DNA of 64,000 nucleotides, taken from NCBI GenBank assembly GCA_963766795.1, contig CAVYBN010000007.1, positions 54,389 to 118,388 on the forward strand. The letters run 5' to 3'. A program made the translations under genes and the position numbers. The stretch comes from Candidatus Parcubacteria bacterium. Lineage in GTDB: Bacteria; Patescibacteriota; Minisyncoccia; Phycocordibacterales; PALSA-1337. This document shows positions 3,216 to 58,490 of this stretch, piece after piece. The notes beneath the pieces were generated by a model, which saw nothing but the letters and a program-made list of their open reading frames with translations, was not told the origin of the DNA and ran no database searches. How positions within the stretch are numbered: the stretch's first letter is position 1; each line of letters starts with the position of its first letter.

Positions 3216-6200
3216 TTATTGGTGGCGCCGGTCGAAGTGCCGAGCCAAATGTTGCCGATCTGGGAAGTTCCGTATGTCTGCGCGATCGTGAGCGAAGTGG
3301 TGGCGGATTGGAGACAAGTGCCACCGATCGAATAGCAACCGCCGGTCAAGTTGAGTCCGTTTGCGAAAGTTGAAGAAGCTGTGGCTGATGTGGCGTTGAA
3401 GATGGAAGCGGAGAGGCCGGCCGGCGAATGTGGAGGTGGCGGTAGTGGAAGTCGAGACGATGTAGTTCACGGTCGGCGAAGTCGAAGAGATGAACGCGCC
3501 GGAATTATTGATGCCGAGCCAGCCTTGGCCGAAGGAGGTCTGGCCGGTGCCGCCGTACAAAACCCCAATAGATGTCGTGGCCGAGACGACGCCGGAGATC
3601 GCTTGGAGCGGTCCGGTCAGAGAGCCGATAACCACAGAACCATTGTTGTTGACTTCAAACGGCGTGGTCGTACCGTTCGAAGTCGAAGAGCTGATGGCAA
3701 ACATCGGCGCGGTAGCTGACCAGTTCGGCACGCCGATCGAGAGCGCCGCCCAAGGAGTCGAGCTTCCGATTCCCACATTGGTTCCGTTGTCGAAGATCAA
3801 AGAATTGGTGAAAGTTCCATTGGAGTTCCACTTTGGCAGATAATTGTTGGTGAGGCTTGAAACCGTTGACGAGCCGAGCAGACCAAGAGAAGAAGTGGCG
3901 CTACAGTGTAATATCCACTCAAAGCGTTGCCGAGGAGAAGCTGGCCGTAGTTTGGCGTATTGAAAGACCGGTGCCGCCGCCGGCCGCAGTGAGAGATTCC
4001 CGAGGTGGTGGCGTTGAAAGCTGAAGGAGCTTCCGGTGTTGGTGATGTATATGCCAGTGGTGAGTCCGTTATTGGTGGCGCCGGTTGAGGTGCCAAGCCA
4101 GATATTCCCCGTCTGCGCCGTTCCGTATGTCTGGGCGAGCGTCATCGAGGTGGTGGCTGACAATATTCCCAAGGACGAAGTCGCGTATTGCGTGTATCCT
4201 CCGACCGCATTGCCGATCAGCAATGACGATGAAGCTATCGAAGTCAGCCCGGTGCCGCCGTAGAGGACGCCGACAGAAGTGGTGGCCGAGACGACGCCGG
4301 CGTTGGCTTGCAAGGGACCGTTCAGCGATGAAGATAGAGTCAACGAATTGGCGCTGACTGAATTCAAAGCACTGGCTCCATTCACCGTCAAGGTTCCGAT
4401 ATTGCCATTAGTCGCGTAAAGGTTAGTTGAAGAAGCTGTGGCCGCGAAGAAATCGGTGGTGGTCGCGGCCGTGCCGGTGGCGTTCACGAAGGTGAAATTC
4501 TGCAGAGTCGAAGAGCCGGTCGAGAGAAGGTTCGGAAATTTCGCCAGACCGCCCACGGTCAGAGTGCCGGTGGCCGTGATGTCCCCGGCCGTCAGGCTTC
4601 CGGAAAAATATCCGTTGCCTTCGACCGTGAGCGGCATGAAGGGCGAGGTCGTGGCGATCCCGAGAAAGCCGAGCGTGGTGTCGAACAGGCTCTGGTAGTC
4701 TCCAAAGACCACATTGCCCTGCGAACCAAGGGAGGTGGAGCTGGCAGCCAAGACGACATTGCCTGAACCATCCGGCCCATATCCTCCTTCTATGTAGACG
4801 GCCCCTCCAAATTCACTGCCTTCTTCACCAACGCCGCCACTGGCGCTTCCGGCATTCCCTCCCAAGAGAGACAGATCACCACCGCCGCCGGCGATGTTGA
4901 AGGCGGCATTGTTAGACGCGTTGCCGCCGTTGCCGCCTTGGATCGTGACCGTGCCTCCCCAGCCGCCATTATTGAAGCCACTCCCGGTAACGACATTCTC
5001 CGAACCGCCGGTGCCGCCGAGGATGTTGACCGGACCGCCTTTGCCGCCGTTGATCTGGCCCGAGCCGGCGTTGGTGCTGACCCCGCCCAAGCCGCCGTTC
5101 AAGATGATCCCGCCGCCAATGCCGGCTATCGGAAAATTGCCGAAAGTGGAATACGAAGTGTTCCCGCCGGTCGCGCCAGTGACCAAGAGCGAAGTGGTGG
5201 CATTGGTGCCGTATTGGGTCGCAACCGACGCTGGTTGCGGGTTATTGATCATCAAGCCGCCGGTCGAGCCGAATAGGTTGAGCGTGAGCGCACCCACGGA
5301 ATTGACGACGGCCGCCAGATAGTCGGTGTTGTCGTACGCGAGATCGAGCTGCGGCACGGCCGAGGAATTGTTCTGGACCGAGAGCTTGGCGTATGGGCTC
5401 GTCGTGCCGATGCCGATATTGTTGGCGTCTTTGGTGGTCGTGCCGAAGACCAGAGTGCTGGTCGAGAAGACATTCGCGCCGTTCGCGCCGTAGAAAGCGG
5501 CCTGGCCGGCCACGCCGGTCTGGACAGAGGATGCGCCGAGCAGACCCAGTGTCGTAGTCGAGACTGACGTCCAATTGGAGCCGTTCCATTGGATCAGGCC
5601 GCCGGTTCCGAGCGATGTCCCGAGGCCGGCCGGAGCGGCGATGGTGGAGGATGAATTGACGAAATAGTTGGCCGAAGTGGTCGAGAAAGCTATGATGCCC
5701 AAGGACGAGGTGGCCATCGAAGAGACCGCGCCGTTGGTTCCGAACAGGATGCCATTCAAAGACGAGGCAAGATTGGTGGCGCCGCTGACCGTGAGCGAAT
5801 TTGCGGATACCGAATTCAAGGCCGACGCTCCATTCACGGTTAATGTTCCGATATTCCCGTTAGTCGCGTAAAGGTTAGTCGAGGAAGCCGTGGCCGCGAA
5901 GAAGCTGGTGGTGGTGGCGGCCGTGCCGGTGGCGTTCGTGAAAGTGAAATTCTGCAGAGTCGAAGAGCCGCTGACAAGGAGATTGCCGAGCGTCGCCAAG
6001 CCGCTCAAGAAAGACTTCTGCGCGTTCGGGTCGAACCAGAATTTGGCCGTGGTGGTGGAAGTGTTGCCGATGGCGATGACGTCGGTCGTGTTGTTGGAAT
6101 AGTTGACCAGTTCGCCGGAGACCTGCGAGGTGGTGGTCGACCACGAGCCGGCCGCGGCGGCGGCTCCGCCGCAACCCAGAGGATTGGCCGCGACCGTGCC

Positions 6201-9014
6201 GTCGGGACCGACTTGGAGACAGCGGATGGTCAAGCCGGTGAGGGCCGAGAGGACGACATTGCCGTTGAAAGTCGCGGAGCCTCCGAAGACATTCGCGCCG
6301 TTGAAAGTCTGGTCTCCGGTGAAGGTGTTGCTGGAAGATGTCTTGGAAATGGTCGATGAGCCGTTCGCGTAGTAGTCAGCCGAAGTCGTCGAGAATGAAA
6401 GGAAGCCCAAGCTCGAAGTGCCGGTCAAAGCGTAAGTGCCGTCCGATTGGCCCATCAACAGGTTGCCGTACGAGGGAGCGCTCGAAAGGCCCGTGCCGCC
6501 GTTGCCGACGGCCAGCGTGCCAGTGGTTGAAGACAGCGGAATCGAGAGATTCAAAGACGATGTCGCGATCGAAGAAACTGCTCCATTGGTCCCGAATAGG
6601 AGGCCGTTCAGAGCGCCGATGGTCAAGGCCGTGGTCGAAGCATACGGCAGTTGCGAAGCCGCGGAAGAAGTCGCGATGAAATTCGAAGCCGTCTGGTTGC
6701 CGGCGACGAAGGAATTGCCTTCGACGGAGAACAGCGCGAATGGCGAGGTCGTGCCGACGCCGACGTTACCGTTGGAGAGGATCGAGAGCACGGTCTGCGA
6801 AGCTTGGCCGAAGAATTCGGCGATCTTGCCGGCGCCGCTCTGCAAAACATTGATAAATGTTCCTGAAGATGAAGTGGCGTTCTGCGCGTCGCTCCGCAGG
6901 AATTGCGATGAATTCAGACCACTCAAAGCCTGCGCGTTGGTTGCCTCGAAGGCCGCCGGCACCGCGCCGAGGATCTTGCGCGGCGACATCTCGCCGTCCC
7001 ATGTCGGAGTCGGAGCGTTGGCCGTGCCGCCGATGTCGACGCCCAGATACAGCGTCTGATTGAAGTTGACGCCCGTGAATGGCGTGGTCGAGCCCAGCAT
7101 CAGGCTGAAAAGCCCGCTCTTCAAGGCCGCGCCTTGGCCATTCGAGACCAGATCATCCTCGGTCCAGATCGGCGCGCCGCCGGACAGCGAGGCGTAGAGC
7201 TTGAACTCGACGTTGTACGAGCCGTCGGCGACCGTGTTGCCCGAAGCGTCCATGAGCTTGCCCTGGTAGTTGATCTCGGGATTGAAAGCGGCGTAAGCGA
7301 TGGGCGAGAACAGCTTGAAGACGAGCGCGAAGATGACGAGAGAGGCGACGACGATGGGGATCGATTGGGAACGATCGCCAACACCGCCGCTCTCTTTCGG
7401 CGACAACACTGTTCCGTCCGAGACCGCTCTGCCTGTCGGCAGAATTGCGGCTCGGTCCGGAACAGTGTTCTCGCCTGCGAGAGCGGCTGACGAAACATTC
7501 TTATCAGTATCTTCGACCATAGCTCTTTGCGCATCGAAAGCCGAGAATTTGGTCGTCTTCCAAGCTGGCGCTTCGGCAATGACAGGATCTTTTTGGATTT
7601 CGGATTTCGGATTTGTCTCGTCCGCCGGCTGGCGGATCGGATTTCGGATTTCGGATTTGTCCGATTCTTGAATCTTGAATCTTGAATCTTGAATCTTCTC
7701 TCCGTTGCCTCCCTTGCCATTCTTGCGCCGCCTCCAGACGATGATCGCGACGATGATCGCGAGCAAGATGGCCGCCAAGATCCAGAGATAATTCCCGAAC
7801 GCGAAACCGGCTGGTAGAGAATTCAGAGCCGCGGCGGTGAAGGCGTCGAGCGAGCCGGAGAGCTGCTTCAAGCCTTGATTCTGATAGTCGAGGATGCTGA
7901 CCGTCAGAGGATATGAGCCGGACCTGCCCAAAGGCCCCATGGTCGCCTCGTAGTAGCTCTTGTCGGCGTTCGGCCGCAGGAGAAAGATGAAAGCTTTGGA
8001 ATGGTCGGCCGGATCGGAGAGGCCGAGCGCGATCGTCTTCAGGATCTGCGGCACGCGGTCGTAGCGCAGGCGGACGGTCAAGTCCTCGGTGCCATTCACG
8101 GAAACGGTGCCGCCGGCTCCGACCGGGATGAGCTTGCCGTCCTGGATGAATTGGAAGTCGAGCAATGACAAGCTGGCGATCATCGGGTCGACGTGCGCGG
8201 CTTGCTGGACATTGACGAAAGGATTCGAGGAGGTGGCCGCGGCGATCTCGCCCGGAAGCGGCATGCGCGCGAATGCCAAGGCGCCGGAAGAGACTATGCC
8301 GTTCATGCCCTCCGCGAAAATGGCGTAATAGTAGGTCACGCCAGCCTTGGCCGTGGCGTCGAAGTATGACTGCTCGGTTCCTTGATATATCGTTTCTCCG
8401 TCAGATTCATTCCCGGGGAAGAACGAGCTCGAACGGATGATCCTGACTTGGATGAAACGGAAGTCGGTCGGGTTCGTCCATAAGAGAGCGATGCCGTTCA
8501 CGAGCGGGGCGGCCGTGAAGCCGGACGGGTTCGGCAAAGGCAGAGTGCCGCCGCTCGAAGAACCGCCCGCGGCTTGTTTATTATTGGCTGGCGGCGTGAC
8601 TGGCGGCACGACCGGAGCGGGCGGAACCGTTTGCTGATAGCCGGCATGTACGGTTTGATCGGCGCTCGCGGAATATCCGGTGGCGACTTCGCCGGCGGTG
8701 TCTTCCGCGCTATAGCTCGCCGACTTCGAATTTCCGCCGCCGAAGTTCACGCTCTCTTCCTGCATCGAATAATGAGGGCTCTGCATCACTTGGGCGTGGG
8801 CGAGAGGAAGAGATGAGAGATTAGAGATAAGAGATAAGAGAAAAGCAAAACTCAAAAGGGAAAAGGCAAGTATTTTGTCACCCCAGCGAAGGCTGGGGTC
8901 CAGGGTATTGCCACCGACGGAATTGGTCGAACCTTGGATTCCCGCCTTCGCGGGAATGACAATAGAAATCGCGGGAATGACAAGCTTTTGAATTATGAGT
9001 TTCGAAATCTTCAT
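3216..9014 (-). CDS. Giant repetitive Gly/Ser/Thr/Asn-rich cell-surface protein. It has a signal peptide and a ~440-aa N-terminal domain ending in a 'LPAGF'-TM-RRRK segment. A linker made of repeat-element insertions follows, then a second signal-peptide-like TM, then a long beta-rich repeat region with recurring GTGLSS.PSYGNLL.G and N(V/I)GIGTTSP..(K)L.V modules. The called C-terminal ~300 codons are out of frame.
   Basis: A 5.8 kb ORF. Translation shows hydrophobic signal-like segments at the N-terminus and again at ~residue 560 (IPIVVASLVIFALVFKLFSPIAYA). Tail-fibre or adhesin-like repeat motifs occur many times. Two segments (SFQRHHLGNLSLRPAAAPVFQYAKLRP... and the final ...RPLRFHLQRHISHSFF...RRHQ) are Arg/His-rich nonsense, typical of wrong-frame read-through in GC-rich DNA. 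Confidence 0.6.
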   Translation of the reverse strand: MKISKLIIQKLVIPAISIVIPAKAGIQGSTNSVGGNTLDPSLRWGDKILAFSLLSFAFLLSLISNLSSLPLAHAQVMQSPHYSMQEESVNFGGGNSKSASYSAEDTAGEVATGYSASADQTVHAGYQQTVPPAPVVPPVTPPANNKQAAGGSSSGGTLPLPNPSGFTAAPLVNGIALLWTNPTDFRFIQVRIIRSSSFFPGNESDGETIYQGTEQSYFDATAKAGVTYYYAIFAEGMNGIVSSGALAFARMPLPGEIAAATSSNPFVNVQQAAHVDPMIASLSLLDFQFIQDGKLIPVGAGGTVSVNGTEDLTVRLRYDRVPQILKTIALGLSDPADHSKAFIFLLRPNADKSYYEATMGPLGRSGSYPLTVSILDYQNQGLKQLSGSLDAFTAAALNSLPAGFAFGNYLWILAAILLAIIVAIIVWRRRKNGKGGNGEKIQDSRFKIQESDKSEIRNPIRQPADETNPKSEIQKDPVIAEAPAWKTTKFSAFDAQRAMVEDTDKNVSSAALAGENTVPDRAAILPTGRAVSDGTVLSPKESGGVGDRSQSIPIVVASLVIFALVFKLFSPIAYAAFNPEINYQGKLMDASGNTVADGSYNVEFKLYASLSGGAPIWTEDDLVSNGQGAALKSGLFSLMLGSTTPFTGVNFNQTLYLGVDIGGTANAPTPTWDGEMSPRKILGAVPAAFEATNAQALSGLNSSQFLRSDAQNATSSSGTFINVLQSGAGKIAEFFGQASQTVLSILSNGNVGVGTTSPFALFSVEGNSFVAGNQTASNFIATSSAASQLPYASTTALTIGALNGLLFGTNGAVSSIATSSLNLSIPLSSTTGTLAVGNGGTGLSSAPSYGNLLMGQSDGTYALTGTSSLGFLSFSTTSADYYANGSSTISKTSSSNTFTGDQTFNGANVFGGSATFNGNVVLSALTGLTIRCLQVGPDGTVAANPLGCGGAAAAAGSWSTTTSQVSGELVNYSNNTTDVIAIGNTSTTTAKFWFDPNAQKSFLSGLATLGNLLVSGSSTLQNFTFTNATGTAATTTSFFAATASSTNLYATNGNIGTLTVNGASALNSVSANSLTVSGATNLASSLNGILFGTNGAVSSMATSSLGIIAFSTTSANYFVNSSSTIAAPAGLGTSLGTGGLIQWNGSNWTSVSTTTLGLLGASSVQTGVAGQAAFYGANGANVFSTSTLVFGTTTKDANNIGIGTTSPYAKLSVQNNSSAVPQLDLAYDNTDYLAAVVNSVGALTLNLFGSTGGLMINNPQPASVATQYGTNATTSLLVTGATGGNTSYSTFGNFPIAGIGGGIILNGGLGGVSTNAGSGQINGGKGGPVNILGGTGGSENVVTGSGFNNGGWGGTVTIQGGNGGNASNNAAFNIAGGGGDLSLLGGNAGSASGGVGEEGSEFGGAVYIEGGYGPDGSGNVVLAASSTSLGSQGNVVFGDYQSLFDTTLGFLGIATTSPFMPLTVEGNGYFSGSLTAGDITATGTLTVGGLAKFPNLLSTGSSTLQNFTFVNATGTAATTTDFFAATASSTNLYATNGNIGTLTVNGASALNSVSANSLTLSSSLNGPLQANAGVVSATTSVGVLYGGTGLTSIASSSLLIGNAVGGYTQYATSSLGILSATTSMTLAQTYGTAQTGNIWLGTSTGATNNGLTTGIYITNTGSSFSFQRHHLGNLSLRPAAAPVFQYAKLRPASPRQRFEWILHCSATSSLGLLGSSTVSSLTNNYLPKWNSNGTFTNSLIFDNGTNVGIGSSTPWAALSIGVPNWSATAPMFAISSSTSNGTTTPFEVNNNGSVVIGSLTGPLQAISGVVSATTSIGVLYGGTGQTSFGQGWLGINNSGAFISSTSPTVNYIVSTSTTATSTFAGRPLRFHLQRHISHSFFNFRKRTQLDRRLLFDRWHLSPIRHHFAHDRADIRNFPDRQHLARHFDRRHQ
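8877..8981. repeat. Family-A palindromic element, inserted in frame at the 5' end of the giant gene (peptide VIPAKAGIQGSTNSVGGNTLDPSLRWGDK). It has an extra partial arm at 8971-8981.
   Basis: gtcaccccagcgaaggctggggtccag ... ttggattcccgccttcgcgggaatgac. The inverted arms match the consensus of the other copies. Confidence 0.8.
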
Positions 9015-9019
9015 AATCG

Positions 9020-10438
9020 TTAATTGACCGCGCTCGTCGAAGTCGCCTTGACCGGCACCAAGACGTACAGGAAGTCGTGCCCGGCCACCGTCCTGAAGAC
9101 CGGTTGGATCACGCCGGTGGTCCCGTCCGGATTCGGCCTTACCGTGACCGCGTCGGAGAACGAATTCTGGATGCTCTTCTCGAGCTTGACCTGATCCGAC
9201 GGCGAACCGGAGGGCGGCAGGATGACCACGCCTCCGTGCTCGGCCGTGACCTTGCCTTGTTCTCCGGGCGGGATCACCGACGAGGCGGGCGGCTCTTCCG
9301 ATCCCACGCCGACATCCGCGCTCTCGTCGACGCCGCCATTCAAAACAACCGTAGCGTTCGCATTCGCACTCGAACCGGCGCTCGAAGAAGCATTCACCGC
9401 ATCCGTGCCGCCGACCGCCAGGCTATTCGAAGGCCGGCTGGAATCATTGCTTGCGATCAGTGACAAGGCGTTCGAAGCCAAGCTGGAAGTCCCCGAGAAC
9501 ATCGAGCTCCAAGCCGAGGCTAGCGTCTCGCCGGCTCCGGCGGCGATATTCTCAATCGATTGGAGCGCGATCTGCGGCAAAGACTGGATGGCCGAAGCGG
9601 CTTCCGCGACATTGGCGGCCGAAGCATTTTCCAAAGACGAGACGCTCGAAGAAATGTCTGCGAACGTTTGAGACGGATGCAGACGGGAATTCCCCATAGC
9701 CGTCATCGCGACCAAGAAGATGACCGCCGCCAATGTCGGCGAGAGCAAAGCATACGGAGAACGGACCGCTGATGCGAATCTTTCTGTCGGAGTCGGAAGA
9801 TACGTCCACTTCCAAGCCGGCGGAGGTTCGACGGCCGGCAATTGTCGATTGATGATCGACGCCTGGGCGCGAGCATCGAGCTTGGAGATCGTGACGCGAG
9901 CGACATCGGCTAGCGTTTCGCGGATAGGGATTGAAGATTGCAGATTGAAGATTGAAGATTCACGATTGACGAATGTTTTGTCATTCCCGTGCAAACGGGA
10001 ATCCAGTGTTTTTTCTCTGATGTCAATCGTTTCACCCTGGATCCCCGCTTTCGCGGGGATGACAGAATTACTTGAAATGAGTGATTTCTGATCTTGAATT
10101 TCGGATTTCGGATTTGTCTCGGATTTCGAATTTCTGATTTCGGATTTTGTGGTCATTTCTGACATCGCAGGCTTGAGGTCAATGATCGTCGAAATTCCCT
10201 CATCAGTGAGGCCGAAAACATCCATCTTTTTGAAGATCGTTTGGTTCGGTTTTATCGACTCTTTTTTGTGACGCAAAATTGAGTTCTCGTCGACGTACCA
10301 GAAGCGTCCGACCATTCTGCAGATCAATTTTCCAGCGCGACAAAGCTGACCGACGTAGTCGTTTGAATATCCGGCTATCTCGGCAGCTCGGCGAGACGAG
10401 ATGTATTGCCTGCCTTCGATAATTAGTGAGTCGCTCAT
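9020..10438 (-). CDS. Membrane protein with an N-terminal excisionase/MerR-like HTH domain, a single TM helix (LAAVIFLVAMTAMG) and a Ser/Ala-rich extracytoplasmic tail. Its stop lies 5 bp before the giant-gene start.
   Basis: The N-terminus (RRAAEIAGYSNDYVGQLCRAGKLICRMVGRFWYV) resembles the small HTH protein at 10938..11189. Hydrophobic stretch at ~residue 225. The C-terminal 230 aa are low-complexity S/A/N-rich. The intergenic distance to 9014 is only 5 bp. Confidence 0.55.
   Translation of the reverse strand: MSDSLIIEGRQYISSRRAAEIAGYSNDYVGQLCRAGKLICRMVGRFWYVDENSILRHKKESIKPNQTIFKKMDVFGLTDEGISTIIDLKPAMSEMTTKSEIRNSKSETNPKSEIQDQKSLISSNSVIPAKAGIQGETIDIREKTLDSRLHGNDKTFVNRESSIFNLQSSIPIRETLADVARVTISKLDARAQASIINRQLPAVEPPPAWKWTYLPTPTERFASAVRSPYALLSPTLAAVIFLVAMTAMGNSRLHPSQTFADISSSVSSLENASAANVAEAASAIQSLPQIALQSIENIAAGAGETLASAWSSMFSGTSSLASNALSLIASNDSSRPSNSLAVGGTDAVNASSSAGSSANANATVVLNGGVDESADVGVGSEEPPASSVIPPGEQGKVTAEHGGVVILPPSGSPSDQVKLEKSIQNSFSDAVTVRPNPDGTTGVIQPVFRTVAGHDFLYVLVPVKATSTSAVN
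9980..10063. repeat. Family-A palindromic element, in frame in the HTH-membrane gene (VIPAKAGIQGETIDIREKTLDSRLHGNDK)
   Basis: gtcattcccgtgcaaacgggaatccag ... ctggatccccgctttcgcggggatgac. Confidence 0.85.
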
Positions 10439-10643
10439 TCGGTGTAATTATACCTTTCATTCTCCTAATATGATTGGGGATAACCCGCTTCGCGGGTTTC
10501 CAACACTGCACTCTGATGTCGTGAATAGAATTAGCATTCACGCGTCCTCGCTTGTGTGGATAAGTGCCATTTTTCCGACCAATTTTTGATCCTACTTCAT
10601 TGTCGATTTCTGACCAAAAAAAATCGTCATTTTCGACCACCAT

Positions 10644-10937
10644 TTTGACCCTCTACAAGCCCCTAGGAGACGCGATAATTTCAAATACAATATTAGCCCA
10701 CATCAAAATCATTTAAAAAGGCATTCTTTAGCTACAATAACCGGGCCGAATCACATAGGTCCGACCTCAGTAAAACATCTGATAGTGTCAGCAAGAAAAA
10801 TATTGACATACCGATCGACGGAGGTCCGACCTGTGTGATTCTAAGTAATCCACTATGTTGATAACTCTTGCTATTTTATGATGAATTATGATGTATAATT
10901 ATCAAGGTTTAATAATCTATCTTAATGCTTCAATTCC
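10644..10937. promoter_or_regulatory. AT-rich divergent intergenic region between the HTH-membrane/giant-protein operon and the small HTH gene. It contains a split inverted pair of the GGTCCGACC hairpin motif (10756-10775 and 10826-10848) flanking a TTGACAT -35-like hexamer.
   Basis: gaatcacatAGGTCCGACCTcag ...(50 bp incl. ttgacat)... ggAGGTCCGACCTgtgtgattc. These are the only non-coding ~300 bp in the first 11 kb. The genes diverge from it. Confidence 0.4.
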
Positions 10938-11189
10938 ATGCCCAATAATAAACTAATTTCGATAAAGGAAGCATCTCAAATGCTCGGCGTGACGCCGCTT
11001 ACGCTCCGGAATTGGGATAAATGCGGAAAATTAAGGGCTATGAGGCATCCTATGAACAATTATAGGGTCTATAAGGCCGAGGAAATCGAGCATTTGCTGG
11101 ATAATATGATGGATCGCAAGCCGGCTTTGTATGTTCCGGAGCGAAAAAAGACTCGTAGGCTTGAAGTAAGGCACCTGGGAGAAGATTGA
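10938..11189 (+). CDS. Small excisionase/MerR-family HTH DNA-binding protein (83 aa)
   Basis: ASQMLGVTPLTLRNWDKCGKLRAMRHPMNNYRVYKAEEIEHLL resembles the excisionase-type HTH (HTH_17-like). It is a paralogue of the N-terminus of the 9020..10438 product. Confidence 0.6.
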   Translation: MPNNKLISIKEASQMLGVTPLTLRNWDKCGKLRAMRHPMNNYRVYKAEEIEHLLDNMMDRKPALYVPERKKTRRLEVRHLGED

Positions 11190-11355
11190 TGCAAGATTCC
11201 ACGCCCTTCGGGCACTTTCTCAAGGTGGGTTTTTAAAAATAGCCGAGAGCTTTAATTCTCGCCTCGCCGAGATATCCACCAACATAGGGCTATCTCGGAT
11301 GCACTTGACAGCGCTTTGTGATAAAATATTGTATAATTAATCCATCGAAAAACAT

Positions 11356-12997
11356 ATGAAATATATACCGGTGATCGGTCTGGAAATACACGCCGAGCTC
11401 AAGACAGCCTCGAAGATGTTCTGCTCCTGCAAGAATGACCCTGACGAGGAAAGGCCTAATTCCAATATCTGCCCCATTTGCCTAGGCCATCCGGGCACTT
11501 TGCCGGTATTGAATCGCGAGGCCATAAAGCACGTGCTAAAGGTCGGTGTGGCAGTCAACGGCAAATTGGCCGACTTCACCGAGTGGGACCGCAAGAACTA
11601 CTTTTATCCGGACATCCCCAAGGGCTATCAGATCAGCCAGTACAAGTATCCGCTTGGTCTCCGACGGCGAGCTTGCCGGCGTCGCGCTCGAGCGCATCCA
11701 CCTCGAAGAAGACACCGCGCGCTCCACTCATGACATCGAGGTCGGACCTCGACACGGAATACCCAGAGGTCCGACCTCTCTAGTCGACTTCAACCGATCG
11801 GGAGTCCCTCTCTTGGAGCTCGTGACCAAGCCTGTCATCCACGACTCTGCGACCGCAGTCAGGTTCGCGAAGGAACTGCAATTGCTCCTGCGCTCTCTCG
11901 GCGCCGGCGACGCGAACATGGAGAAGGGCGAGATGAGAGTCGAAGCGAACGTGTCAGTTAGTAAGATTGATGAAGAGATAGGAGATAAGAGATTAGAGAT
12001 TAGAGAACGGCGGAGTTCGAAGGTGTCTGTCATTCCCGCTGATTCTTTTGTCATCCCCGCGAAAGCGGGGATCCAGAGTCAAACTATTGAAGGTGGTAAT
12101 ACACTGGATTCCCGCGTGCGCGGGAATGACAAAATTAAACTTGGAACGAAAACAGAAGTTAAGAACTTGAATTCATTCAGGTCGGTGGAGAAAGCGATCG
12201 AGTACGAGATCGAACGTCAGACTTCCCTCTTGGAGAAGGGCGAGGCTGTCGTCCAAGAGACTCGAGGATGGGACGACTCGCTCGGCGAAACTTATCCTCA
12301 ACGATCGAAAGAGAGCTCGCACGACTATCGCTACTTCCCTGACCCGGACATACCCAAGATGAAGCTCTCGGAGATCCCGGAGTTCTCGTCCGCTGAATTG
12401 AAGAAGTCCTTGCCAGAGCTGCCGTGGGTTAAACGAGACCGATTCAAGAAAGATCTCGGCATGACCGACAAAGAGGTTTCGGTGTTCGTTGAGAATGATT
12501 TTCTTTCGGCATATTTCGATCAGACGATTAAAGCCACCGGCACAGATAAGAAGATCGTTCGTCTCGTGATCAATTATCTTCTGACCGATTACGTCGCACT
12601 TTTAAAAGGCTCGACTGATTTGAATGGACAACGGCACCAGTTCCATTTGAATCCTCTGTACATCGAGCCGAAACATTTCGCCGAGCTCATTTCAATGGTC
12701 GCCTCCAATGAGATCTCATCCAGAGGCGCCAAAGACTTGCTTGCGATCCTCTTAAAGGAAAAGGATACTTCACCCAAAGTTCTTGCCAAGAAGCACAACC
12801 TCCTCCAAAAGAGCGACGCCGCAGACATCTCGCCGATCATCGAAAAAGTCATCGCAGACAACGCCAAAGTCGCCGCCGAGTTCAAAGCTGGCAAGACTGC
12901 ATCGCTCCAATTCCTGATCGGCCAGGCCATGAAAGCCGCCAAGGGTTCGGCTAATCCGGAGGTAGTCAAGAAGCTTCTCATTGAAAAGCTTGGCTGA
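11356..12997 (+). CDS. gatB: Asp-tRNA(Asn)/Glu-tRNA(Gln) amidotransferase subunit B. It is split by an apparent +1 frameshift near 11655-11665 and carries at least three in-frame repeat insertions.
   Basis: The N-terminus MKYIPVIGLEIHAELKTASKMFCSC...NICPICLGHPGTLPVLN and the later IHLEEDT...YRYFPDPDIP are canonical GatB. The frame-1 ORF 11356..11733 and the frame-2 ORF 11546..12997 overlap, and the conserved sequence continues across them (..QISQYKYPL | VSDGELAGVALERIHLEEDTA). Inserted peptides are HDIEVGPRHGIPRGPTSL, SKIDEEIGDKRLEIRERR and VIPAKAGIQSQTIEGGNTLDSRVRGNDK. Confidence 0.85.
12029..12129. repeat. Family-A palindromic element (with an extra half-arm at 12029-12045), in frame in gatB
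   Basis: gtcattcccgctgattcttttgtcatccccgcgaaagcggggatccag ... ctggattcccgcgtgcgcgggaatgac. Confidence 0.85.
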
Positions 12998-14957: not shown

Positions 14958-18032
<3,075 letters not shown>

Positions 18033-51368: not shown

Positions 51369-51779
51369 TCACAGATTGGCTGGGAGCGGCGAGTGGGCCG
51401 GTTTTAAATCGACTGTCGGAACCGAGGCTTTCGAATCGGCCATAATCGGCTTCTGTGCAATCACTTGATTCAAGACAACAAACGGCTTGTGAGTCACACC
51501 TGCATTCGAGGCGGGCGAGGCAGAGCTTCCGAAGAGCCGAGGACTGTCCGAGCGAGCAGAGATCGAAGCCTTTAAAGAAGGGTTTGCGTCAGCCGCGCCT
51601 TCTTTGTCATCCCCGCGAAAGCGGGGATCCAGTGTCTTTGTTGTTTGACCCTGGATTCCCGCTTGCGCCTTCGCTTCGCTTCGGCTTGCGGGAATGACAA
51701 CAACATCCTTCGCGGGACTGCTTCGAATCTCTGCCTTCTTCACCGTCGGCTCATGGAACTTGACTATCCCCTCCTCCAC
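51369..51779 (-). CDS. Pro/Ala/Ser-rich low-complexity protein containing a Family-A element in frame. It overlaps the VirD4-like gene end by 29 nt.
   Basis: VIPASRSEAKAQAGIQGQTTKTLDPRFRGDDK, then S/P/A-rich sequence. Confidence 0.3.
   Translation of the reverse strand: MEEGIVKFHEPTVKKAEIRSSPAKDVVVIPASRSEAKAQAGIQGQTTKTLDPRFRGDDKEGAADANPSLKASISARSDSPRLFGSSASPASNAGVTHKPFVVLNQVIAQKPIMADSKASVPTVDLKPAHSPLPANL
51606..51698. repeat. Family-A palindromic element (a variant with a ~25-bp insert in the right arm)
   Basis: gtcatccccgcgaaagcggggatccag ... ctggattcccgcttgcgccttcgcttcgcttcggcttgcgggaatgac. Confidence 0.8.
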
Positions 51780-53031
51780 TTCTGCGCGCGGCTTCGGAGA
51801 ACTGCTCGCGCGAAGCGGCGATGATGTCCGTGAAATACGACGTGCTCGGATGCGCGATCGGCGGCAGAGTCATGGCCGAGAATGGCGGCGAAGTCAGGCC
51901 GTCGATCATCAGCTTCAGGTATATCTGCGCAAAGCCCAGATTGACCAGATCCTCGATCTCGAACTGCGGCGTGAACTCATTCTCGAGCATCTCCGCGTCG
52001 TTGGCACCGATGCGGAAGAGGATCATCGTGCCGACGTTGCCGAAGACCGCCGGCCGCACGAACTCGTCCATCTGCTCGACGTATTGGTGGGCGATGGTCA
52101 GGTTGAGCTTGTATTTGCGGGCTTCGGACAGGATGTCCGCGAATGACGCGTTGGCGAAGTTCTGGAATTCGTCGACGAACAGATAGAAGTTCGGCAGCAT
52201 CTTCATGACGCGGTCCGGCACGTCGGCGCGCGACATCGCCGCCAGGTATATCTTGGTCACCAGAAGTCCCCCGAGGAGCTTCATGTTCTCGTCGCCGATC
52301 TTGCCCTTGGACAGGTTGATGATCATGATCTTCTTCTTGTCCATGGCCTCGCGGAAATCGAACGACGAATGCGGCTGGCCGATCATGTTCCTGATCAGCG
52401 GGTTGGCCGTGAATTGTCCGACCTTATTCTGGATGGCCGGCACGGCCTCGGCGGCCTGACGCTCGGTGTAGCTGGCGAACTCCTTGGTCCAGAAAGCTTT
52501 CACTGAAGGGTCTTTTATGTATGAGACGATGTCATTCCTGTATGCCTTGTCCGAGAGCATCCTATTCACGCCCAAAAGAGTCGAGCCCGGTGCTTCGAGG
52601 AGCGCCAGGAGAGTATTGGTCAGAATGTATTCCATGCGAGCCGACCAAGCGTCTACCCAGATCTTCTTGAAAGTGCTCATCAGGCCGGAGACGACCAGAT
52701 GGCGCTTGTCGGGATCGATCGATTCGAGGACGTTGAATGAGATCGGGTATTCGGTGTCGAAAGGCGCGATGTAAATGACATCGCGGATGCGGGACTGCGG
52801 CACATATTCCATGAGGAGGTCGGCGGTCTTGCCGTGCGGGTCGATGAAGCACATGCCCTCGCCGTTCTGGATATCCTGGACGGCCATGTTCTCGAGCAAG
52901 GTGGATTTGCCCATGCCGGTCTTGCCGATGACATAGACGTGGCGGGTGCGATCCTTGGCCTTGATGCCGAACTTCACCCGCTTGTTGCGGGCATCCGTCT
53001 CGGCGAAATATGTGATCTTATTCTCGTCCAT
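51751..53031 (-). CDS. Soluble VirD4/TraD/TraG-like (TrwB_AAD_bind or HerA/FtsK-like) P-loop ATPase
   Basis: Walker A VIGKTGMGKST, Walker B LFVDEFQNF, and a coupling-protein-like AHQYVEQM...GNVGTMILFRIG block. No N-terminal TM segment. Confidence 0.65.
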   Translation of the reverse strand: MDENKITYFAETDARNKRVKFGIKAKDRTRHVYVIGKTGMGKSTLLENMAVQDIQNGEGMCFIDPHGKTADLLMEYVPQSRIRDVIYIAPFDTEYPISFNVLESIDPDKRHLVVSGLMSTFKKIWVDAWSARMEYILTNTLLALLEAPGSTLLGVNRMLSDKAYRNDIVSYIKDPSVKAFWTKEFASYTERQAAEAVPAIQNKVGQFTANPLIRNMIGQPHSSFDFREAMDKKKIMIINLSKGKIGDENMKLLGGLLVTKIYLAAMSRADVPDRVMKMLPNFYLFVDEFQNFANASFADILSEARKYKLNLTIAHQYVEQMDEFVRPAVFGNVGTMILFRIGANDAEMLENEFTPQFEIEDLVNLGFAQIYLKLMIDGLTSPPFSAMTLPPIAHPSTSYFTDIIAASREQFSEAARRSGGGDSQVP

Positions 53032-53273
53032 TCGAGGTTATTTTAACATAAAATCGGCCGGAAATGGCATCCACTTAAGTATGGCATAAACAGAAACCCG
53101 CGACTCATTGCTGAGCCGCGGGGCAAATCCGTGAAAGTTTTGAGCTTGCGCTCGCGGTTCTTTCGACCGAGTGGGTATAGCCACTATTCACTTAACGAAG
53201 TCAACATTCATCGTCTTGTGATAAGTTCGGAAATAAACCGCGACATTACTTTCGTACCAATATGGTTTCGTTA

Positions 53274-53561
53274 CTAGAAGTTGCACGCCTGCGACTTGGT
53301 CATCGTAATCATCATCCAAGTGGAGGATGATGCTCTGACCAATATTGACGCGAGACACAGCCGTCGAGAAATCGTGTACTCTTTACCTTTCACAGTGATA
53401 TAGGTGTTAATCCGTCCACTGCTGTGGGAAGTAATAATGACATTCTCAACCACTGCTCCTATTACCTTTGCAAAACCATTCAGCTCCAGGAAGAGCCGTG
53501 GGGGTAAGCGTTTTGTATCTCGAAGAAGACCAAGCCTCATGGGTTTGTTTTTAATTTTCAA
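53274..53561 (-). CDS. Small hypothetical protein (95 aa) in a low-GC island
   Basis: An isolated ORF divergent from 53829..54074. No motif recognised. Confidence 0.3.
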   Translation of the reverse strand: MKIKNKPMRLGLLRDTKRLPPRLFLELNGFAKVIGAVVENVIITSHSSGRINTYITVKGKEYTISRRLCLASILVRASSSTWMMITMTKSQACNF

Positions 53562-53828
53562 GTGGATTTCGCTTTCTTTTGTTGTATATGTTTTATTGTT
53601 GTGTAGTTAAATCTAGCTCTCAAAAGGCAAATTTCACCTTTTTGGAGCCAGATTCATACCGTTCTCAATGACCTTATCTTACTAATTCAAGTATAGCACA
53701 ATTGAGTAAATAAGTCAATACTTTGACGATTTCGTCAAATATGTGTCGTTATGTGGCTCTGTTGAGGCGTAGAAGTGGGGTTTATGATTTTTTGCAAAAG
53801 CGCATATAAATATGCTATCATTCTAGCA
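53562..53828. promoter_or_regulatory. AT-rich divergent intergenic region with a perfect 16-bp palindrome, TTGACGATTTCGTCAA (53723-53738), a candidate operator
   Basis: The palindrome lies ~90 bp upstream of the 53829 start and ~160 bp upstream of the divergent 53561 start. Confidence 0.35.
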
Positions 53829-54074
53829 ATGAACAGCAATCTCCAAAAAGAGCTTGAATATTTTAAGGCGCATCAAGACGAACTCGTAAAACGATACGAG
53901 GGCAAATTCGTCATTATCAAAGACCAGAAAATCGAGGGGGTATATGGCACCGAGATCGAGGCATACACCGAAGCTCAGAAGAGGTTCGAGCTTGGAACAT
54001 TCATGATCCAACAGTGCCTCGCCGGTAAGGAGAGCTATACTCAGTCTTTTCACTCAAGAGTATCATTCCCTTAA
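53829..54074 (+). CDS. Small protein (81 aa), DUF5678-like, a family with unknown function
   Basis: MNSNLQKELEYFKAHQDELVKRYEGKFVIIKDQKIEGVYGTEIEAYTEAQKRFELGTFMIQQC follows the ...Y.GKWV.I.D.KV... E.Y..A.KKF pattern of that family. Confidence 0.4.
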   Translation: MNSNLQKELEYFKAHQDELVKRYEGKFVIIKDQKIEGVYGTEIEAYTEAQKRFELGTFMIQQCLAGKESYTQSFHSRVSFP

Positions 54075-54682
54075 TCGAATATGCATCATGCTTTCGTACC
54101 ATCTGCGCATGATCACAATGTGATGGAGGGCGGGAATAGAGAACAAAGGAGAGCGCTCAAATCTAAAAGACGATAAGCTTTTTGCATGAAAAACTAAACC
54201 CCCGTCCATGTACATCGGCACGGGGCTTTCCGGCATCTTCCAGCGCCGGGTTAATATTATGTGCAAAGAATTGAAACCGGCTAGACCATCATGCGTTGCG
54301 ACCTTCCATTTCCGCCGGCCATTTGCGCAAACACCTGCGAAGAGACCTCCCGGCGCATCGAAAGCCTGATGCCTCCTCCGGATTTTGACTCCAAAACCGC
54401 TTGTGCTTGGAGCCTCGATTGAAGTTCGACCCTCGTTCGCAGCGTCGGCGAAAGCCCTGGGCGATTGCCGTCTTCACGATCGTTCAGTTGACAATCGCTG
54501 GTCCCATCTCCGAATGTTATCTCTTGGCATAAACGTTATAATTCGGTTTCAAATCCCACCGCACCGTCCTGCGATCGAGAAAATGGAGGACATCTGGCAT
54601 CCATGCCAGACGATCTCGACTGCATCAGCGCCATGTAGAATCTATCCGGGGTAGAATCATACAACTTATTGTAAGAATAGCA

Positions 54683-54710
54683 AGCCACTAGCGACTAGGT
54701 GCTAGTGGCT
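54683..54710. terminator. Perfect 10-bp-stem hairpin (agccactagc-gactaggt-gctagtggct) spanning the stop of the DUF4015-like gene
   Basis: The inverted repeat is read directly from the sequence. It lies at the boundary between the low-GC island and the flanking gene. Confidence 0.3.
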
Positions 54711-55897
54711 ACTGTCGCCGGCATCAATTCCGGGATGTTGTAGACGCTTGCCGCGTTCCAGAGCATCCAGCCTGACAGACCGGAATCGTAGACCGCCTGC
54801 TTCTCGGACTCGACCGCGGACGGCGGATACAGAGCCTTGTAATCGAAAGCCTGCAGCCAAGGACGTAACTTGTCCGGCGTCGATGAAGCCGCGACAGCCC
54901 GTTCGACCGCGCGTGTCATGGTGAATCTGACTATGGAATACGGATCAGCGGCCGGATTCGCGTAGCCGTCGAAGCCGTCGATGAAATGAGAAGGATAGAC
55001 CATCTGGTCCACGAAGTCGAAATACGGCAGAGCATCTTCCATGACTTGGCCTATCCCCATGTCGTCGGTATTCACTGTCGTCTGGCCGAATAAGTCGGCG
55101 GAGATCTTTATTCCTGTATGTGAATCGATCGTCGGTTGCAATTGTGAATGTAAGTATGAGAAAAACTCTTTGATGACCGCGACTTTAGTCGTCGAGGCCG
55201 GCAGAGCGAAGTGCGCGTCGGACATGTCTCCGTCTGACGGGAATCGGATGTAGTCGAAATTGATCTCGTCGAAGCCGATCGAGTAAGATTCTTTGGCTAT
55301 AGCTACGATGTAGTCCCAGTAGGGCTTGCTATCGGGGTCGACATAAGACAGTCCGCTCTTGTCCGTCCACGGTCGGCTCGGATGAGACAGGCTGGCCACG
55401 GCAGATTCCGGATGCGCGTTCGAATACAACGGATCCTGAAAAACTGTGATCCGGCCGATCGCGTAGATCCCTTTGTCGTGCAATTCTTGGACGAATTCAG
55501 GCAGATCAATTATGCGACAACCATTGCCTCCGTGAGGCACGGCGACTGAAGTCGAAGCGTATGACACTGTGCCGCTATAATCCTTGATATCGATGACCAT
55601 GGAATTGATCTCGGTGCCAGCCAATTCATTGACGACCTTGTCGCGCAGCTTCGATTCGCTCCCGGTGCAGGCGGTGATATATACGGCCTTGACGGGAATC
55701 GGAGTCGGGATGTGGACAACCGCTGGTTTCACTGGAATGACTGGGGCTTCAATGGCCGCAGCTTTTAAAGCATCACTGGAATCCGCGTAAGAGACGCGGC
55801 TCCAAGCCGGCCAGCTCATTGCCATCGTCATGCCGGCGGAAATCGCTCCTACGGCCAAAATAAGGGCTAGAATAGGCATCAGCCATTTGTTCCGCAT
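54695..55897 (-). CDS. DUF4015-type putative glycoside hydrolase (TIM-barrel, GHL10-like) with an N-terminal signal/anchor
   Basis: MRNKWLMPILALILAVGAISAG signal-like N-terminus. AVYITACTG...INSMVIDIK...IGRITVFQDP...FDEINFDYIRFP matches the conserved blocks of this family. Confidence 0.55.
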   Translation of the reverse strand: MRNKWLMPILALILAVGAISAGMTMAMSWPAWSRVSYADSSDALKAAAIEAPVIPVKPAVVHIPTPIPVKAVYITACTGSESKLRDKVVNELAGTEINSMVIDIKDYSGTVSYASTSVAVPHGGNGCRIIDLPEFVQELHDKGIYAIGRITVFQDPLYSNAHPESAVASLSHPSRPWTDKSGLSYVDPDSKPYWDYIVAIAKESYSIGFDEINFDYIRFPSDGDMSDAHFALPASTTKVAVIKEFFSYLHSQLQPTIDSHTGIKISADLFGQTTVNTDDMGIGQVMEDALPYFDFVDQMVYPSHFIDGFDGYANPAADPYSIVRFTMTRAVERAVAASSTPDKLRPWLQAFDYKALYPPSAVESEKQAVYDSGLSGWMLWNAASVYNIPELMPATVATST

Positions 55898-56976: not shown

Positions 56977-57076
56977 GAGCGAGAGAAACATGCCCGTGAA
57001 GGACTTTGCCAACAAAACGAATACCAGGAATATTGGCACGGGGGCACCGTCCTGAATGGGCATGTTTCTCTCGCTC
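56977..57076. repeat. Family-D MITE-like element with 19-bp perfect terminal inverted repeats, intergenic
   Basis: gagcgagagaaacatgccc ... gggcatgtttctctcgctc. Confidence 0.8.
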
Positions 57077-57122
57077 ATGCAGCCTCTGTCTTAGAAATAA
57101 ATCCTGTGGTAAGGTAATATCC

Positions 57123-58490
57123 ATGGAACAGCCGAAACAGACCGTCATATATGTGACCCGCGAGATCGAGCGAGCCATGGGAATGGCCCCGAACGAGCAT
57201 TACCGCATCGTCGCCAACCGCACGCCTTACGGCGAAACCATTAAAAAGCAATACCCCGATTTCGTCACGCTCGTCGAAAGCCCGACGCCCAAGCTCCTTG
57301 GCACCGGCGAACTTCTGGACCATCCAAAAACTGCCGCTGTCTATGAAGAGATCGCTAATTCTTTTATCACCCCCGCGAAGGCAACGGTCCAGGATCGATC
57401 TGCTGATTCTCCTGTCATCCCCGCGAAAGCGGGGATCCAGGGTCAGACCACTGGAAATGGTAATACACTGGATTCCCGTTTTCACGGGAATGACAAAACG
57501 ATTCCCAATTTCCTCGTCTTCAAGAACACCGCGCGCATCGAGCCGATTGCGCACGCGCACGGCTGGAAGCTCGTGAATCCTCTGGCGTCGCTCTCGGAGC
57601 AAGTCGAGAACAAGATCAGCCAAGTCGCGTGGCTCGAAAATTCAGCCGAATACTATCTGCCGAAGCATCAGGTAGGACCGCTCAAGAGGATGACTTGGAC
57701 CGGCGAGCCCTTCGTCCTCCAATGGGGCCACGGTCACACCGGCGACGGCACCATCCTCGTCAATTCGCAGGCAGAGCTCGACAAGTGGAAGGCGCGATTC
57801 CCCTATCGCATGACGCGCGTGAGCGCTCTCGTGAGCGGCCCTTCATTCACGGTCAACGCACTGGTCGCCGGCGACGATGTCCTCATCGGCAACCCGAGCT
57901 ATCAGATCACCGGCATGGCGCCGTTCACCGACAGCCGCTTCGCCACCGTCGGCAATGACTGGAGCGCGGTCCGCAACATCCTCTCCGAAGCCGAGCTGCG
58001 TTCGATCGAGAATCTGGCCAAAGACATCGGCATGCGTCTCAAAGACAGCGGTTGGCGCGGCCTCTATGGCGTGGACATCATGCGCGACGACGAACGCGGC
58101 CGTATCTTCCTCATCGAAGTCAATGCCCGCCAGCCCGCTTCCACGCCTTTCGAGTCATTCTTACAGGAATCAGAGCGCGTCAAGGGAGCTGCCGGTTTGA
58201 CAATATTTGAAGCTCATTTGAAGGCCTTGCTCGGCGAAGCCATCACCGAACCTTTGATCAAGATCAAAGACGGTTCGCAGATCATCCAGCGCGTCACCAA
58301 TGCCGTCAGGTCAGTGCCTGCCAACGCAGCCAGTGCTCTTGAATCAGCCGGCTATCAAGTCGTTTCTTACGCCAACACTGAACTGAACGCCGACCTCCTG
58401 CGCATTCAGTCCATGAATGGCATCATGGCTGGACATGATGTGTTCAATGAGAAAGGAAAGGAGATCGTCAAGATCGTTTCAAGTAAATAA
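57123..58490 (+). CDS. ATP-grasp family ligase with an in-frame Family-A insertion near the N-terminus
   Basis: RIFLIEVNARQP(A) is the ATP-grasp C-terminal catalytic motif. Insertion VIPAKAGIQGQTTGNGNTLDSRFHGNDK. The start is reassigned from 57006 to the ATG at 57123 because the upstream codons lie in the Family-D element. Confidence 0.65.
   Translation: MEQPKQTVIYVTREIERAMGMAPNEHYRIVANRTPYGETIKKQYPDFVTLVESPTPKLLGTGELLDHPKTAAVYEEIANSFITPAKATVQDRSADSPVIPAKAGIQGQTTGNGNTLDSRFHGNDKTIPNFLVFKNTARIEPIAHAHGWKLVNPLASLSEQVENKISQVAWLENSAEYYLPKHQVGPLKRMTWTGEPFVLQWGHGHTGDGTILVNSQAELDKWKARFPYRMTRVSALVSGPSFTVNALVAGDDVLIGNPSYQITGMAPFTDSRFATVGNDWSAVRNILSEAELRSIENLAKDIGMRLKDSGWRGLYGVDIMRDDERGRIFLIEVNARQPASTPFESFLQESERVKGAAGLTIFEAHLKALLGEAITEPLIKIKDGSQIIQRVTNAVRSVPANAASALESAGYQVVSYANTELNADLLRIQSMNGIMAGHDVFNEKGKEIVKIVSSK
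57368..57494. repeat. Family-A palindromic element with an extra partial left arm (57368-57395)
   Basis: cacccccgcgaaggcaacggtccagg...gtcatccccgcgaaagcggggatccag ... ctggattcccgttttcacgggaatgac. Confidence 0.85.

Follow-up and report, generated by a model that had tools for sequence, protein, structure and literature searches.

What is the AT-rich stretch of small open reading frames (ORFs) that lies between a VirD4-like ATPase gene and a DUF4015 gene in the genome of a Candidatus Parcubacteria bacterium? The interval occupies positions 53032 to 54694 of a 64,000-nucleotide (nt) stretch of contig CAVYBN010000007.1 (assembly GCA_963766795.1), which is called the window here. An earlier note had described it as a low-GC island of small divergent genes around a palindromic operator and had proposed a toxin-antitoxin (TA) module, an abortive-infection or other defense module, or a mobile remnant. 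The interval indeed contains only small ORFs, as that note stated, and of its three proposals the mobile remnant is the one that survives. No toxin, antitoxin, or defense model was matched. The interval probably consists of a ~1.08-kb AT-rich foreign insert and a ~0.5-kb host-like spacer, the insert being the decaying remnant of a mobile element whose intact form is a two-gene cassette that pairs DUF5678 with a retropepsin-like protease. The insert (53097-54176) would have entered the hypervariable DUF4015/VirD4-like spacer of a Paceibacteria/Taylorbacteria-type genome of the candidate phyla radiation (CPR), and it carries a broken OB-fold-like gene with its own promoter and terminator, an intact DUF5678 gene, and the stump of a protease gene (Table 1).

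The DUF5678 gene and its deleted protease partner

The 81-aa protein previously labeled DUF5678-like is a true DUF5678 protein, with a PF18929 match (E value, 3.4e-5) that covers residues 18 to 60 and exceeds the Pfam cut-off. It has 51 full-length homologs, the closest of which (90% identity) is encoded at a CPR locus designated L001. Comparison of the two genes gave 0.76 synonymous (dS) and 0.042 nonsynonymous (dN) substitutions per site (dN/dS, 0.055), which points to evolution of the window gene under purifying selection. In an AlphaFold2 (AF2) model with a predicted local distance difference test (pLDDT) score of 78.6, the protein has an alpha-alpha-beta-beta-alpha-beta core and a disordered C-terminal tail (pLDDT, <50). 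The tail is conserved among homologs as PG-x-ESYTQ[ST]FHSR, with G66, Y70, T71, and S76 nearly invariant.

The -10 box of the predicted promoter ends 7 nt 5' of the ATG and a Shine-Dalgarno sequence is absent, so the DUF5678 mRNA is probably leaderless. The block TATGCTATC(A/C)T, followed by 7 nt and the ATG, is common to the window and L001, and similar -10-like boxes occur 7 to 10 nt before the DUF5678 ATG at two further loci (L005 and L007). DNA homology with other cassettes starts at 53788 to 53808, 20 to 40 bp 5' of the ATG, and never extends beyond the cassette on either side.

After the DUF5678 stop codon, the sequence reads ATG CAT CAT GCT TTC and then GTA CCA TCT ... TAA. This short frame consists of the first 4 to 5 codons of the L001 protease gene joined in frame to its last 26 to 27, and tblastn aligned 54093-54173 with residues 155 to 181 of the L001 protease at 93%. 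At the DNA level, 53788-54095 matches L001 5960-6267 (86%), and 54092-54168 matches L001 6714-6790 (84%). The offsets of these two alignments differ by exactly 450 bp, or 150 codons, which reveals a clean in-frame internal deletion that removed the entire catalytic domain. The alignments overlap by 4 nt at the junction (54092-54096), a TTTC/TTTT microhomology, and the 450 bp were lost between these TTT(C/T) microhomologies. Otherwise the window and L001 are collinear throughout the promoter, the DUF5678 gene, and the two protease-gene ends, with 84 to 86% DNA identity and no small indels, so that the 150 missing protease codons are what distinguishes the window from L001.

Because the deletion took the D-T-G-A motif, the window encodes no recognizable clan AA retropepsin-like protease, which would require a catalytic hydrophobic-hydrophobic-D-[TS]-G-[AS] motif and a retropepsin domain of ~90 residues, and it lacks the full 180- to 200-aa PF13650/PF13975 gene within ~20 nt that defines the two-gene DUF5678-retropepsin cassette. 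The tail of the stump is conserved relative to L001 much like DUF5678 itself, which suggests that most of the divergence accrued under selection and that the deletion may be recent. The module is dead in the window and yields no more than an orphan DUF5678 protein and a catalytically empty 31-aa peptide; the broken minus-strand gene may still be transcribed in this genome.

Table 1. Features of the interval and of its two flanking genes
Feature	Positions	Strand	Evidence
DUF5678 gene, intact, 81 aa	53829-54074	+	PF18929, 24.0 bits vs Pfam gathering cut-off of 23.2
Protease-gene stump, 31 codons, MHHAF fused to VPSAHDHNVMEGGNREQRRALKSKRR	54081-54176	+	tblastn and blastn vs L001
Predicted DUF5678 cassette promoter, TTGCAA, 18 nt, TG-c-TATCAT	53792-53821	+	Promoter scan
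Frameshifted copy of a rare 110- to 119-aa family (P0052/P0054)	53188-53540	minus	Frameshift-aware alignment
Sigma-70-like promoter candidate, TTGACT, 17 nt, TG-TATACT	53690-53718	minus	Promoter scan, 10/12, extended -10
Intrinsic-terminator-like hairpin, 11-bp stem, 8 G-C pairs, then UUUCUGUUUA	53097-53122	minus	Terminator scan
Imperfect inverted repeat, TTTGACGA-TT-TCGTCAAA	53722-53739		Sequence check
Noncoding spacer, G+C content of 0.517	54177-54694		No homologs or RNA
DUF4015 terminator hairpin, 10-bp stem	54683-54710	minus	Terminator scan; -20.2 kcal/mol, z = -2.96
VirD4/TrwB-like ATPase gene, 426 aa	51751-53031	minus	Matches PF10412, PF01935, PF12696, PF02534
DUF4015 gene (glycosyl-hydrolase-like), 427 aa	54695-55978	minus	276 bits

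The DUF5678-retropepsin cassette in other loci

The genomic places of seven DUF5678 homologs, together with a scan of viral contigs, provided eight further contexts of the cassette. In all eight, DUF5678 is followed on the same strand by a 181- to 202-aa PF13650/PF13975 gene, separated from it by a gap of ~4 to 20 nt or joined to it by a short overlap. All of the partner proteases pass the threshold of Asp_protease_2 (PF13650; 29 to 40 bits against a cut-off of 24.3), and most also pass that of gag-asp_proteas, with the L001 protease and the second copy in L005 as exceptions. The partner proteases contain a D-T-G-A/S motif (WDTGAT or YDTGAT) and remain below the NCBIfam cut-offs for TIGR03698 and TIGR02281. 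The cassette occurs, among other places, in a phage structural module (capsid and SU10-type adaptor), on a contig that has a terminase-like gene, in elements that encode a serine recombinase or integrase, and as a bare two-gene insertion flanked by core genes (SLT and L31, or UvrC/SecG and RNase J).

A profile-based scan of metagenome contigs retrieved 424 DUF5678 relatives, the best 80 loci of which were taken for analysis. Among the 76 evaluable loci, a protease gene lies directly 3' of DUF5678 in 66 and is disrupted in 3, and none is present in 7, although 2 of these 7 have <200 bp of downstream sequence. Metagenomes from groundwater and sediment and contigs of phages contain hundreds of cassette copies, and the cassette was AT-richer than its surroundings in all 11 of the other loci compared.

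Individual loci show further variation. Locus L005 has two paralogous pairs (4418-5045, 64 aa plus 140 aa; 6001-6814, 82 aa plus 186 aa) within 2.4 kb of one CPR genome, among core genes. A Deltaproteobacteria contig, L097, has one complete pair (748-1571) and a second DUF5678 copy (1910-2552), which is followed by an NTP_transf_2 (MNT-type nucleotidyltransferase) gene and no protease. At L126 (4001-4801), the protease gene is similar over its full length but split into short ORFs beside an intact DUF5678 gene, an independent case of protease decay. The phage- and element-borne proteases (L092, 5509-6117; L095, 5258-5824; L098, 1937-2497) end in a SEC-C zinc-binding motif, whereas the CPR proteases (L001, L005, L007, and L093) have a basic tail instead, and the basic tail is the part that survives in the window stump.

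In an intact cassette, whose large partner is a homodimer-type retropepsin-like aspartic protease, the two genes would be translationally coupled through the short gap or overlap. The small protein may act on the protease, or be acted on by it, through the conserved disordered tail, as an inhibitor, a neutralizer, or a substrate. The pair would behave as a selfish, phage-associated or phage-conflict module that moves among phages, integrative elements, and spacers in chromosomes. Both here and at a few other loci the protease has been lost and the small gene kept, as an effector/neutralizer logic would predict. A stronger version, in which DUF5678 and retropepsin form an undescribed class of two-gene module, active in addiction or phage conflict and widespread among CPR bacteria and their phages, with a harmful protease, a neutralizing tail, and a window orphan that is an effector-deleted allele giving immunity against incoming cassettes, is speculative and rather unlikely.

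It is also doubtful that the orphan has been kept because it is useful alone, e.g., as an anti-addiction or immunity factor against phage- or element-borne retropepsin-like proteases. Such a role would suit an intact gene with a conserved promoter and a dN/dS of 0.055 from which the protease has been cleanly removed, DUF5678 being spared; it would also suit the recurrence of DUF5678 without a partner or with a broken one (L126, L143, L163, the L167 group, and the second L097 copy) and the presence of intact cassettes on phage contigs. The low dN/dS, however, may reflect selection that acted before a recent deletion, and the tail of the stump is conserved as well.

The broken minus-strand gene and the proposed toxin-antitoxin pair

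The 95-aa minus-strand protein of the earlier note (53274-53561) was proposed as the divergent partner of DUF5678. This ORF and a 56-aa ORF (53188-53358) are two frames of the same broken gene. A full-sensitivity HMMER search of 1.84 billion representative proteins with the two ORFs merged identified two true relatives, P0052 (110 aa; E value, 6e-29) and P0054 (119 aa), both of which align across the frame junction. After frame correction, 53540-53191 encodes 100 of the 110 residues of P0052 identically, with the start at the ATG at 53540; the correction requires seven 1-nt and two 2-nt insertions to be removed, plus three extra codons. The 95-aa ORF is not a gene product because its only true homologs align across several frames. 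The region is either a pseudogene or a locally misassembled gene, and on neither view is a 95-aa protein encoded as first read.

The family is extremely rare: a word-indexed search of 5.8 billion proteins found only P0052 itself, and no member was found in the JGI metagenome contigs. An AF2 model of P0052, built from a two-sequence alignment, has an all-beta barrel with a core pLDDT of ~80. Its top 50 Foldseek matches in the PDB are mostly OB domains (TiaS, SSB, RPA, LysRS, ExoVII, and PolC), although these matches are weak (E values, 0.008 to 0.1; template modeling score, ~0.4). The broken gene has no Pfam, NCBIfam, PHROG, or PADLOC match. Weak matches of the minus-strand ORF to DUF5564 (E value, 0.04), BrxA (0.03), and two PHROGs (>0.1) were regarded as noise, and P0053 and P0055 to P0059, which the merged ORF also hit, are not homologs but long repetitive proteins, either translations of tandem repeats or unrelated repeat proteins. 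Programmed frameshifting was rejected because the nine sites have no slippery or common motif.

The candidate promoter at 53690-53718 would drive the broken gene. The hairpin at 53097-53122 lies 66 nt past the stop codon of this gene and upstream of the VirD4-like start at 53031. It is highly stable (-25.2 kcal/mol; z = -4.57; equaled by 0 of 200 shuffles), and it is predicted to terminate the minus-strand transcript.

The operator proposed between the two genes also fared poorly. The repeat, described as a perfect 16-bp palindrome, is imperfect: 53723-53738 reads TTGACGA-TT-TCGTCAA (reverse complement, TTGACGAAATCGTCAA), with arms of 7 bp (8 bp over 53722-53739) and a 2-nt spacer. Repeats with 8-bp arms and spacers of ≤10 nt number 51 in the window (0.8 per kb), and one occurs in ~4 to 6% of shuffles of the 267-bp intergenic region, so the repeat is not clearly above chance. 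It abuts the -35 element of the minus-strand promoter, lies ~54 bp upstream of the DUF5678 -35 box and outside the DNA common to homologous cassettes, and was not seen upstream of DUF5678 in other loci.

A live TA or abortive-infection pair of divergent 95-aa and 81-aa proteins, with a palindromic operator in a shared promoter region, can therefore be given hardly any credence. There are promoter-like sites on both strands with an inverted repeat between them, and the region is AT-rich and acquired, all of which would suit such a pair. One of its two proteins, however, is a frame artifact, since P0052 and P0054 align across several frames, and the proposed operator is neither perfect, nor significant, nor part of the conserved cassette DNA. 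A gene like P0052 is absent from all 80 DUF5678 metagenome loci, which shows that the broken gene and DUF5678 are not a conserved pair; the conserved partner of DUF5678 is the downstream protease. No toxin, antitoxin, or defense model was matched by either protein.

Acquisition of the insert

Composition sets the insert apart from the rest of the window, which has a G+C content of 0.525 and is densely tiled with long intact ORFs (up to 1932 aa). The block 53097-54176 has a G+C content of 0.426 (z = -2.35), a value reached by only 1.1% of 1080-bp segments, and in 500-bp segments the G+C content falls to 0.454 at 53001-53500 and 0.384 at 53501-54000. The AT-rich discontinuity reported for the whole interval is thus real, but it is limited to 53032-54176, where the dip ends, and the right-hand part, 54177-54694, is host-like. 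The reported change in codon style is likewise present but modest, because the G+C content at third codon positions of the DUF5678 gene (0.55) is only ~1 standard deviation below the mean of 36 long ORFs (0.64 ± 0.08).

Conservation at the syntenic position was assessed in the best 80 of 543 VirD4-like ATPase relatives (one genome per species scanned; 70 to 91% identity), which come from Patescibacteria metagenome-assembled genomes labeled Taylorbacteria, Paceibacterota, Parcubacteria, and similar. The order rsmI / 73-aa ORF / DUF4015 / VirD4-like / (99-aa ORF) / glycosyltransferase recurs in most of them. None of the 80 related loci has a homolog of DUF5678, the protease, or the broken minus-strand gene (E value, ≤1e-3), and none has blastn or tblastx similarity to the interval DNA except for a weak 41-nt match beside the DUF4015 stop codon. 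Absence from all of these loci, with the gene order kept, indicates that the insert was acquired and is not core, in agreement with the horizontal origin first suggested for it. Conservation of its genes at this position across the lineage, which the earlier note had named as grounds for refutation, was not observed.

Paceibacteria genomes are otherwise compact but vary at the DUF4015/VirD4-like junction. The gap between the two genes measures 24 to 5618 bp in 64 relatives (median, 572 bp), and its content is conserved between close pairs only. Most relatives (L012 to L089) have a spacer of ~450 to 800 bp, unusually long for compact CPR genomes, without a conserved protein or Rfam match; a few have 1.1 to 5.6 kb of extra genes in the gap (Mur ligase-like, nucleotidyltransferase, and NUDIX-like). 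A conserved protein or DNA element was also sought in the spacers of relatives and rejected, as only close pairs share sequence and none is like the window. Rfam searches of the common ~550-bp spacer in eight related loci found no RNA gene.

The right-hand part of the interval is probably the lineage's own fast-evolving DUF4015/VirD4-like spacer, outside the insert, because it has a host-like G+C content and because, together with 53032-53096, it amounts to 583 bp (518 + 65), close to the median gap of 572 bp. The further short ORFs of 60 to 90 codons noted earlier proved to have no homologs: the concatenated ORFs of 54063-54694 matched nothing among 5.8 billion proteins, and an Rfam scan of 52500-55200 at E values of ≤1 returned nothing. 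The hairpin at 54683-54710, which had been taken for the far boundary of an island, does exist, but it overlaps the DUF4015 stop codon (54695-54697), which makes it the terminator of that gene rather than a boundary mark.

An ancestral origin of the block in the lineage, followed by loss from the sampled relatives, is very improbable. On a short ENA contig (sample ERZ1426829, 3275 bp), the P0052 gene lies 293 bp from a divergent 78-aa gene on its upstream side and 155 bp from a long gene on its downstream side, spacings close to those in the window (288 and 157 bp), so at least one other population may share part of the block. None of the 80 related species has it, however, and its G+C content is deviant; the same cassette occurs in unrelated contexts, phages included, and the closest DUF5678 DNA (86% identity) lies in a different genomic context. 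In its deviant G+C content (53097-54176 only), absence from relatives, location at a junction of 24 to 5618 bp, and content of gene remnants, the insert resembles the small genomic islets found at variable core-gene junctions.

Points against a mobile remnant and the possibility of assembly error

Several observations weigh against reading the insert as the decaying remnant of a mobile cassette. It differs from other small islets in its lack of integration hallmarks: its arrival is not marked by an integrase, a tRNA, a target duplication, or a conserved terminal repeat, no recombinase ORF lies within or adjoining the interval, no convincing flanking direct repeats or insertion sequence element was found, and a tRNA scan of the whole window was negative. 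A 23-nt inverted repeat (53777-53799 / 54180-54202) exactly brackets the cassette remnant but has no counterpart in other loci; it was not accepted as a terminal repeat because L001, L005, and L007 have no equivalent and comparable repeats are common in the region. The assignment of 54177-54694 to the ancestral spacer stems from its G+C content and its similarity in size. The AF2 model of DUF5678 has no fold match in the PDB, and no DNA-binding fold was seen in it. A literature search found no paper on prokaryotic DUF5678 and no published function for the cassette, and the role of DUF5678 relative to the protease is one that we infer.

The remaining points concern the broken gene. Its nine frame changes are all insertions (the robust ones net +1) outside homopolymers, accompanied by 9% amino acid divergence. 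This pattern is odd for neutral decay, in which deletions and substitutions are expected to dominate; it would suit uncorrected insertion errors, and a local assembly error fits it as well as real decay does. Elsewhere in the window, a lone +1-type frameshift near 11655 divides gatB (11356-12997, plus strand) into two ORFs: one (11356-11733) covers positions 2 to 96 of the GatB_N profile, and the other (11546-12997) covers positions 101 to 211 plus GatB_Yqey. Either this essential gene is truly broken or the assembly contains an indel here.

Frameshifts in 53188-53540 that are assembly or sequencing errors, e.g., from an unpolished long-read patch in a strain-variable AT-rich spot, would leave an intact ~113-aa OB-fold-like gene divergent from DUF5678, with the protease deletion still real. 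We regard this as a possibility to be taken seriously, though short of probable. The net +1 bias, an in-frame identity of 91% to P0052 that implies too few substitutions for so many indels, the similar single break in the essential gatB, and the persistence of the promoter and strong terminator of the broken gene are all in its favor. Nevertheless, the rest of the window is tiled with long intact ORFs, the DUF5678 cassette, at a distance of 250 bp, shows no small indels in its alignment to L001, and it would be unusual for a single gene alone to have nine errors per 350 bp. Users of this contig should be aware of a possible local assembly problem, given the insertion-only frameshifts and the broken gatB.

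Comparison with known systems

Like type II TA modules, the DUF5678-retropepsin cassette is small, mobile, AT-rich, and apparently translationally coupled, and it is found on phages, integrative elements, and chromosomal spacers. It differs from them in having no known toxin or antitoxin homology, no DNA-binding fold, and no conserved operator, and its large partner is a protease-family protein and not a classical type II toxin. The window itself has no two adjacent, co-oriented, and cotranscribed small genes of this kind, as the 95-aa ORF is divergent and a frame artifact and the true downstream partner is deleted. It has no DNA-binding antitoxin with a conserved operator, and its products have no relevant toxin or antitoxin match in Pfam, NCBIfam, PHROGs, or PADLOC. 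The likeness is closer to orphan-antitoxin remnants, in that the window has lost the presumed effector and kept a small partner with a folded core and a conserved disordered tail.

No known defense system of PADLOC-DB v2 was identified in the window, where the sole match, a weak one to BrxA (E value, 0.029; 12.6 bits), was dismissed. Related full-length proteases match most of the PADLOC model for component B of PDC-M08, although weakly (18 to 28 bits; E values, 3e-7 to 5e-4). PDC-M08 is, to our knowledge, an unvalidated phage-defense candidate, and a literature search found no paper that mentions it. None of the 51 DUF5678 proteins matches any PDC-M08 component or any other defense model, and nothing in the window matches PDC-M08.

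Bacterial clan AA proteases are rare and little understood, and a defined partner protein would therefore offer a direct experimental handle on them. The locus itself is ordinary genome debris and changes no view of CPR biology; its value is indirect, as it points to a tightly linked, mobile, and uncharacterized DUF5678-retropepsin cassette, which is the better lead. A characterized precedent is RimB of the RimABK system, a retropepsin-like protease whose partner is the ATP-grasp enzyme RimK and which trims the polyglutamate of RpsF (PMC11957791). The A2-type peptidases known in bacteria are few and rely on other protein factors (PMC11957791). RimB resembles the cassette protease as a cytoplasmic single-domain clan AA protease with a dedicated partner encoded nearby, but the partner in the cassette is an ~80-aa DUF5678 protein and no RimK is present; in the window, moreover, the protease domain is deleted. 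Apart from the RimB paper (PMC11957791), a literature search on links between prokaryotic retropepsins and antitoxins yielded nothing relevant.

Other features of the window

The sole other region as AT-rich as the insert (1080-bp segments with a G+C content of ≤0.44), ~9841-11660, adjoins the broken gatB and includes, at 10938-11189, a gene for an 83-aa protein of the MerR/HTH_17 type (excisionase-like); it may be a second islet.

A palindromic repeat is present in at least 11 copies (~8934, 9980-10063, 12049-12130, 15555-15639, 17297-17382, 19009, 48301, 51605-51662, 57413-57494, 62768, and 63352) and is absent from the studied interval, 53032-54694. It translates as VIPAKAGIQ...LDSR(F/L)(R/H)GNDK on one strand and as PAFAGMT on the other. 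At least four copies lie in frame within long ORFs, namely, gatB and the ORFs of 494 aa (57006-58490), 472 aa (9020-10438), and 136 aa (51369-51779), an arrangement reminiscent of the Rickettsia-type palindromic elements in coding genes. The first part of the window (1-3200) has no long ORF, a G+C content of 0.53 to 0.62, and a strongly positive GC skew, and it may encode a large structural RNA, e.g., 23S rRNA.

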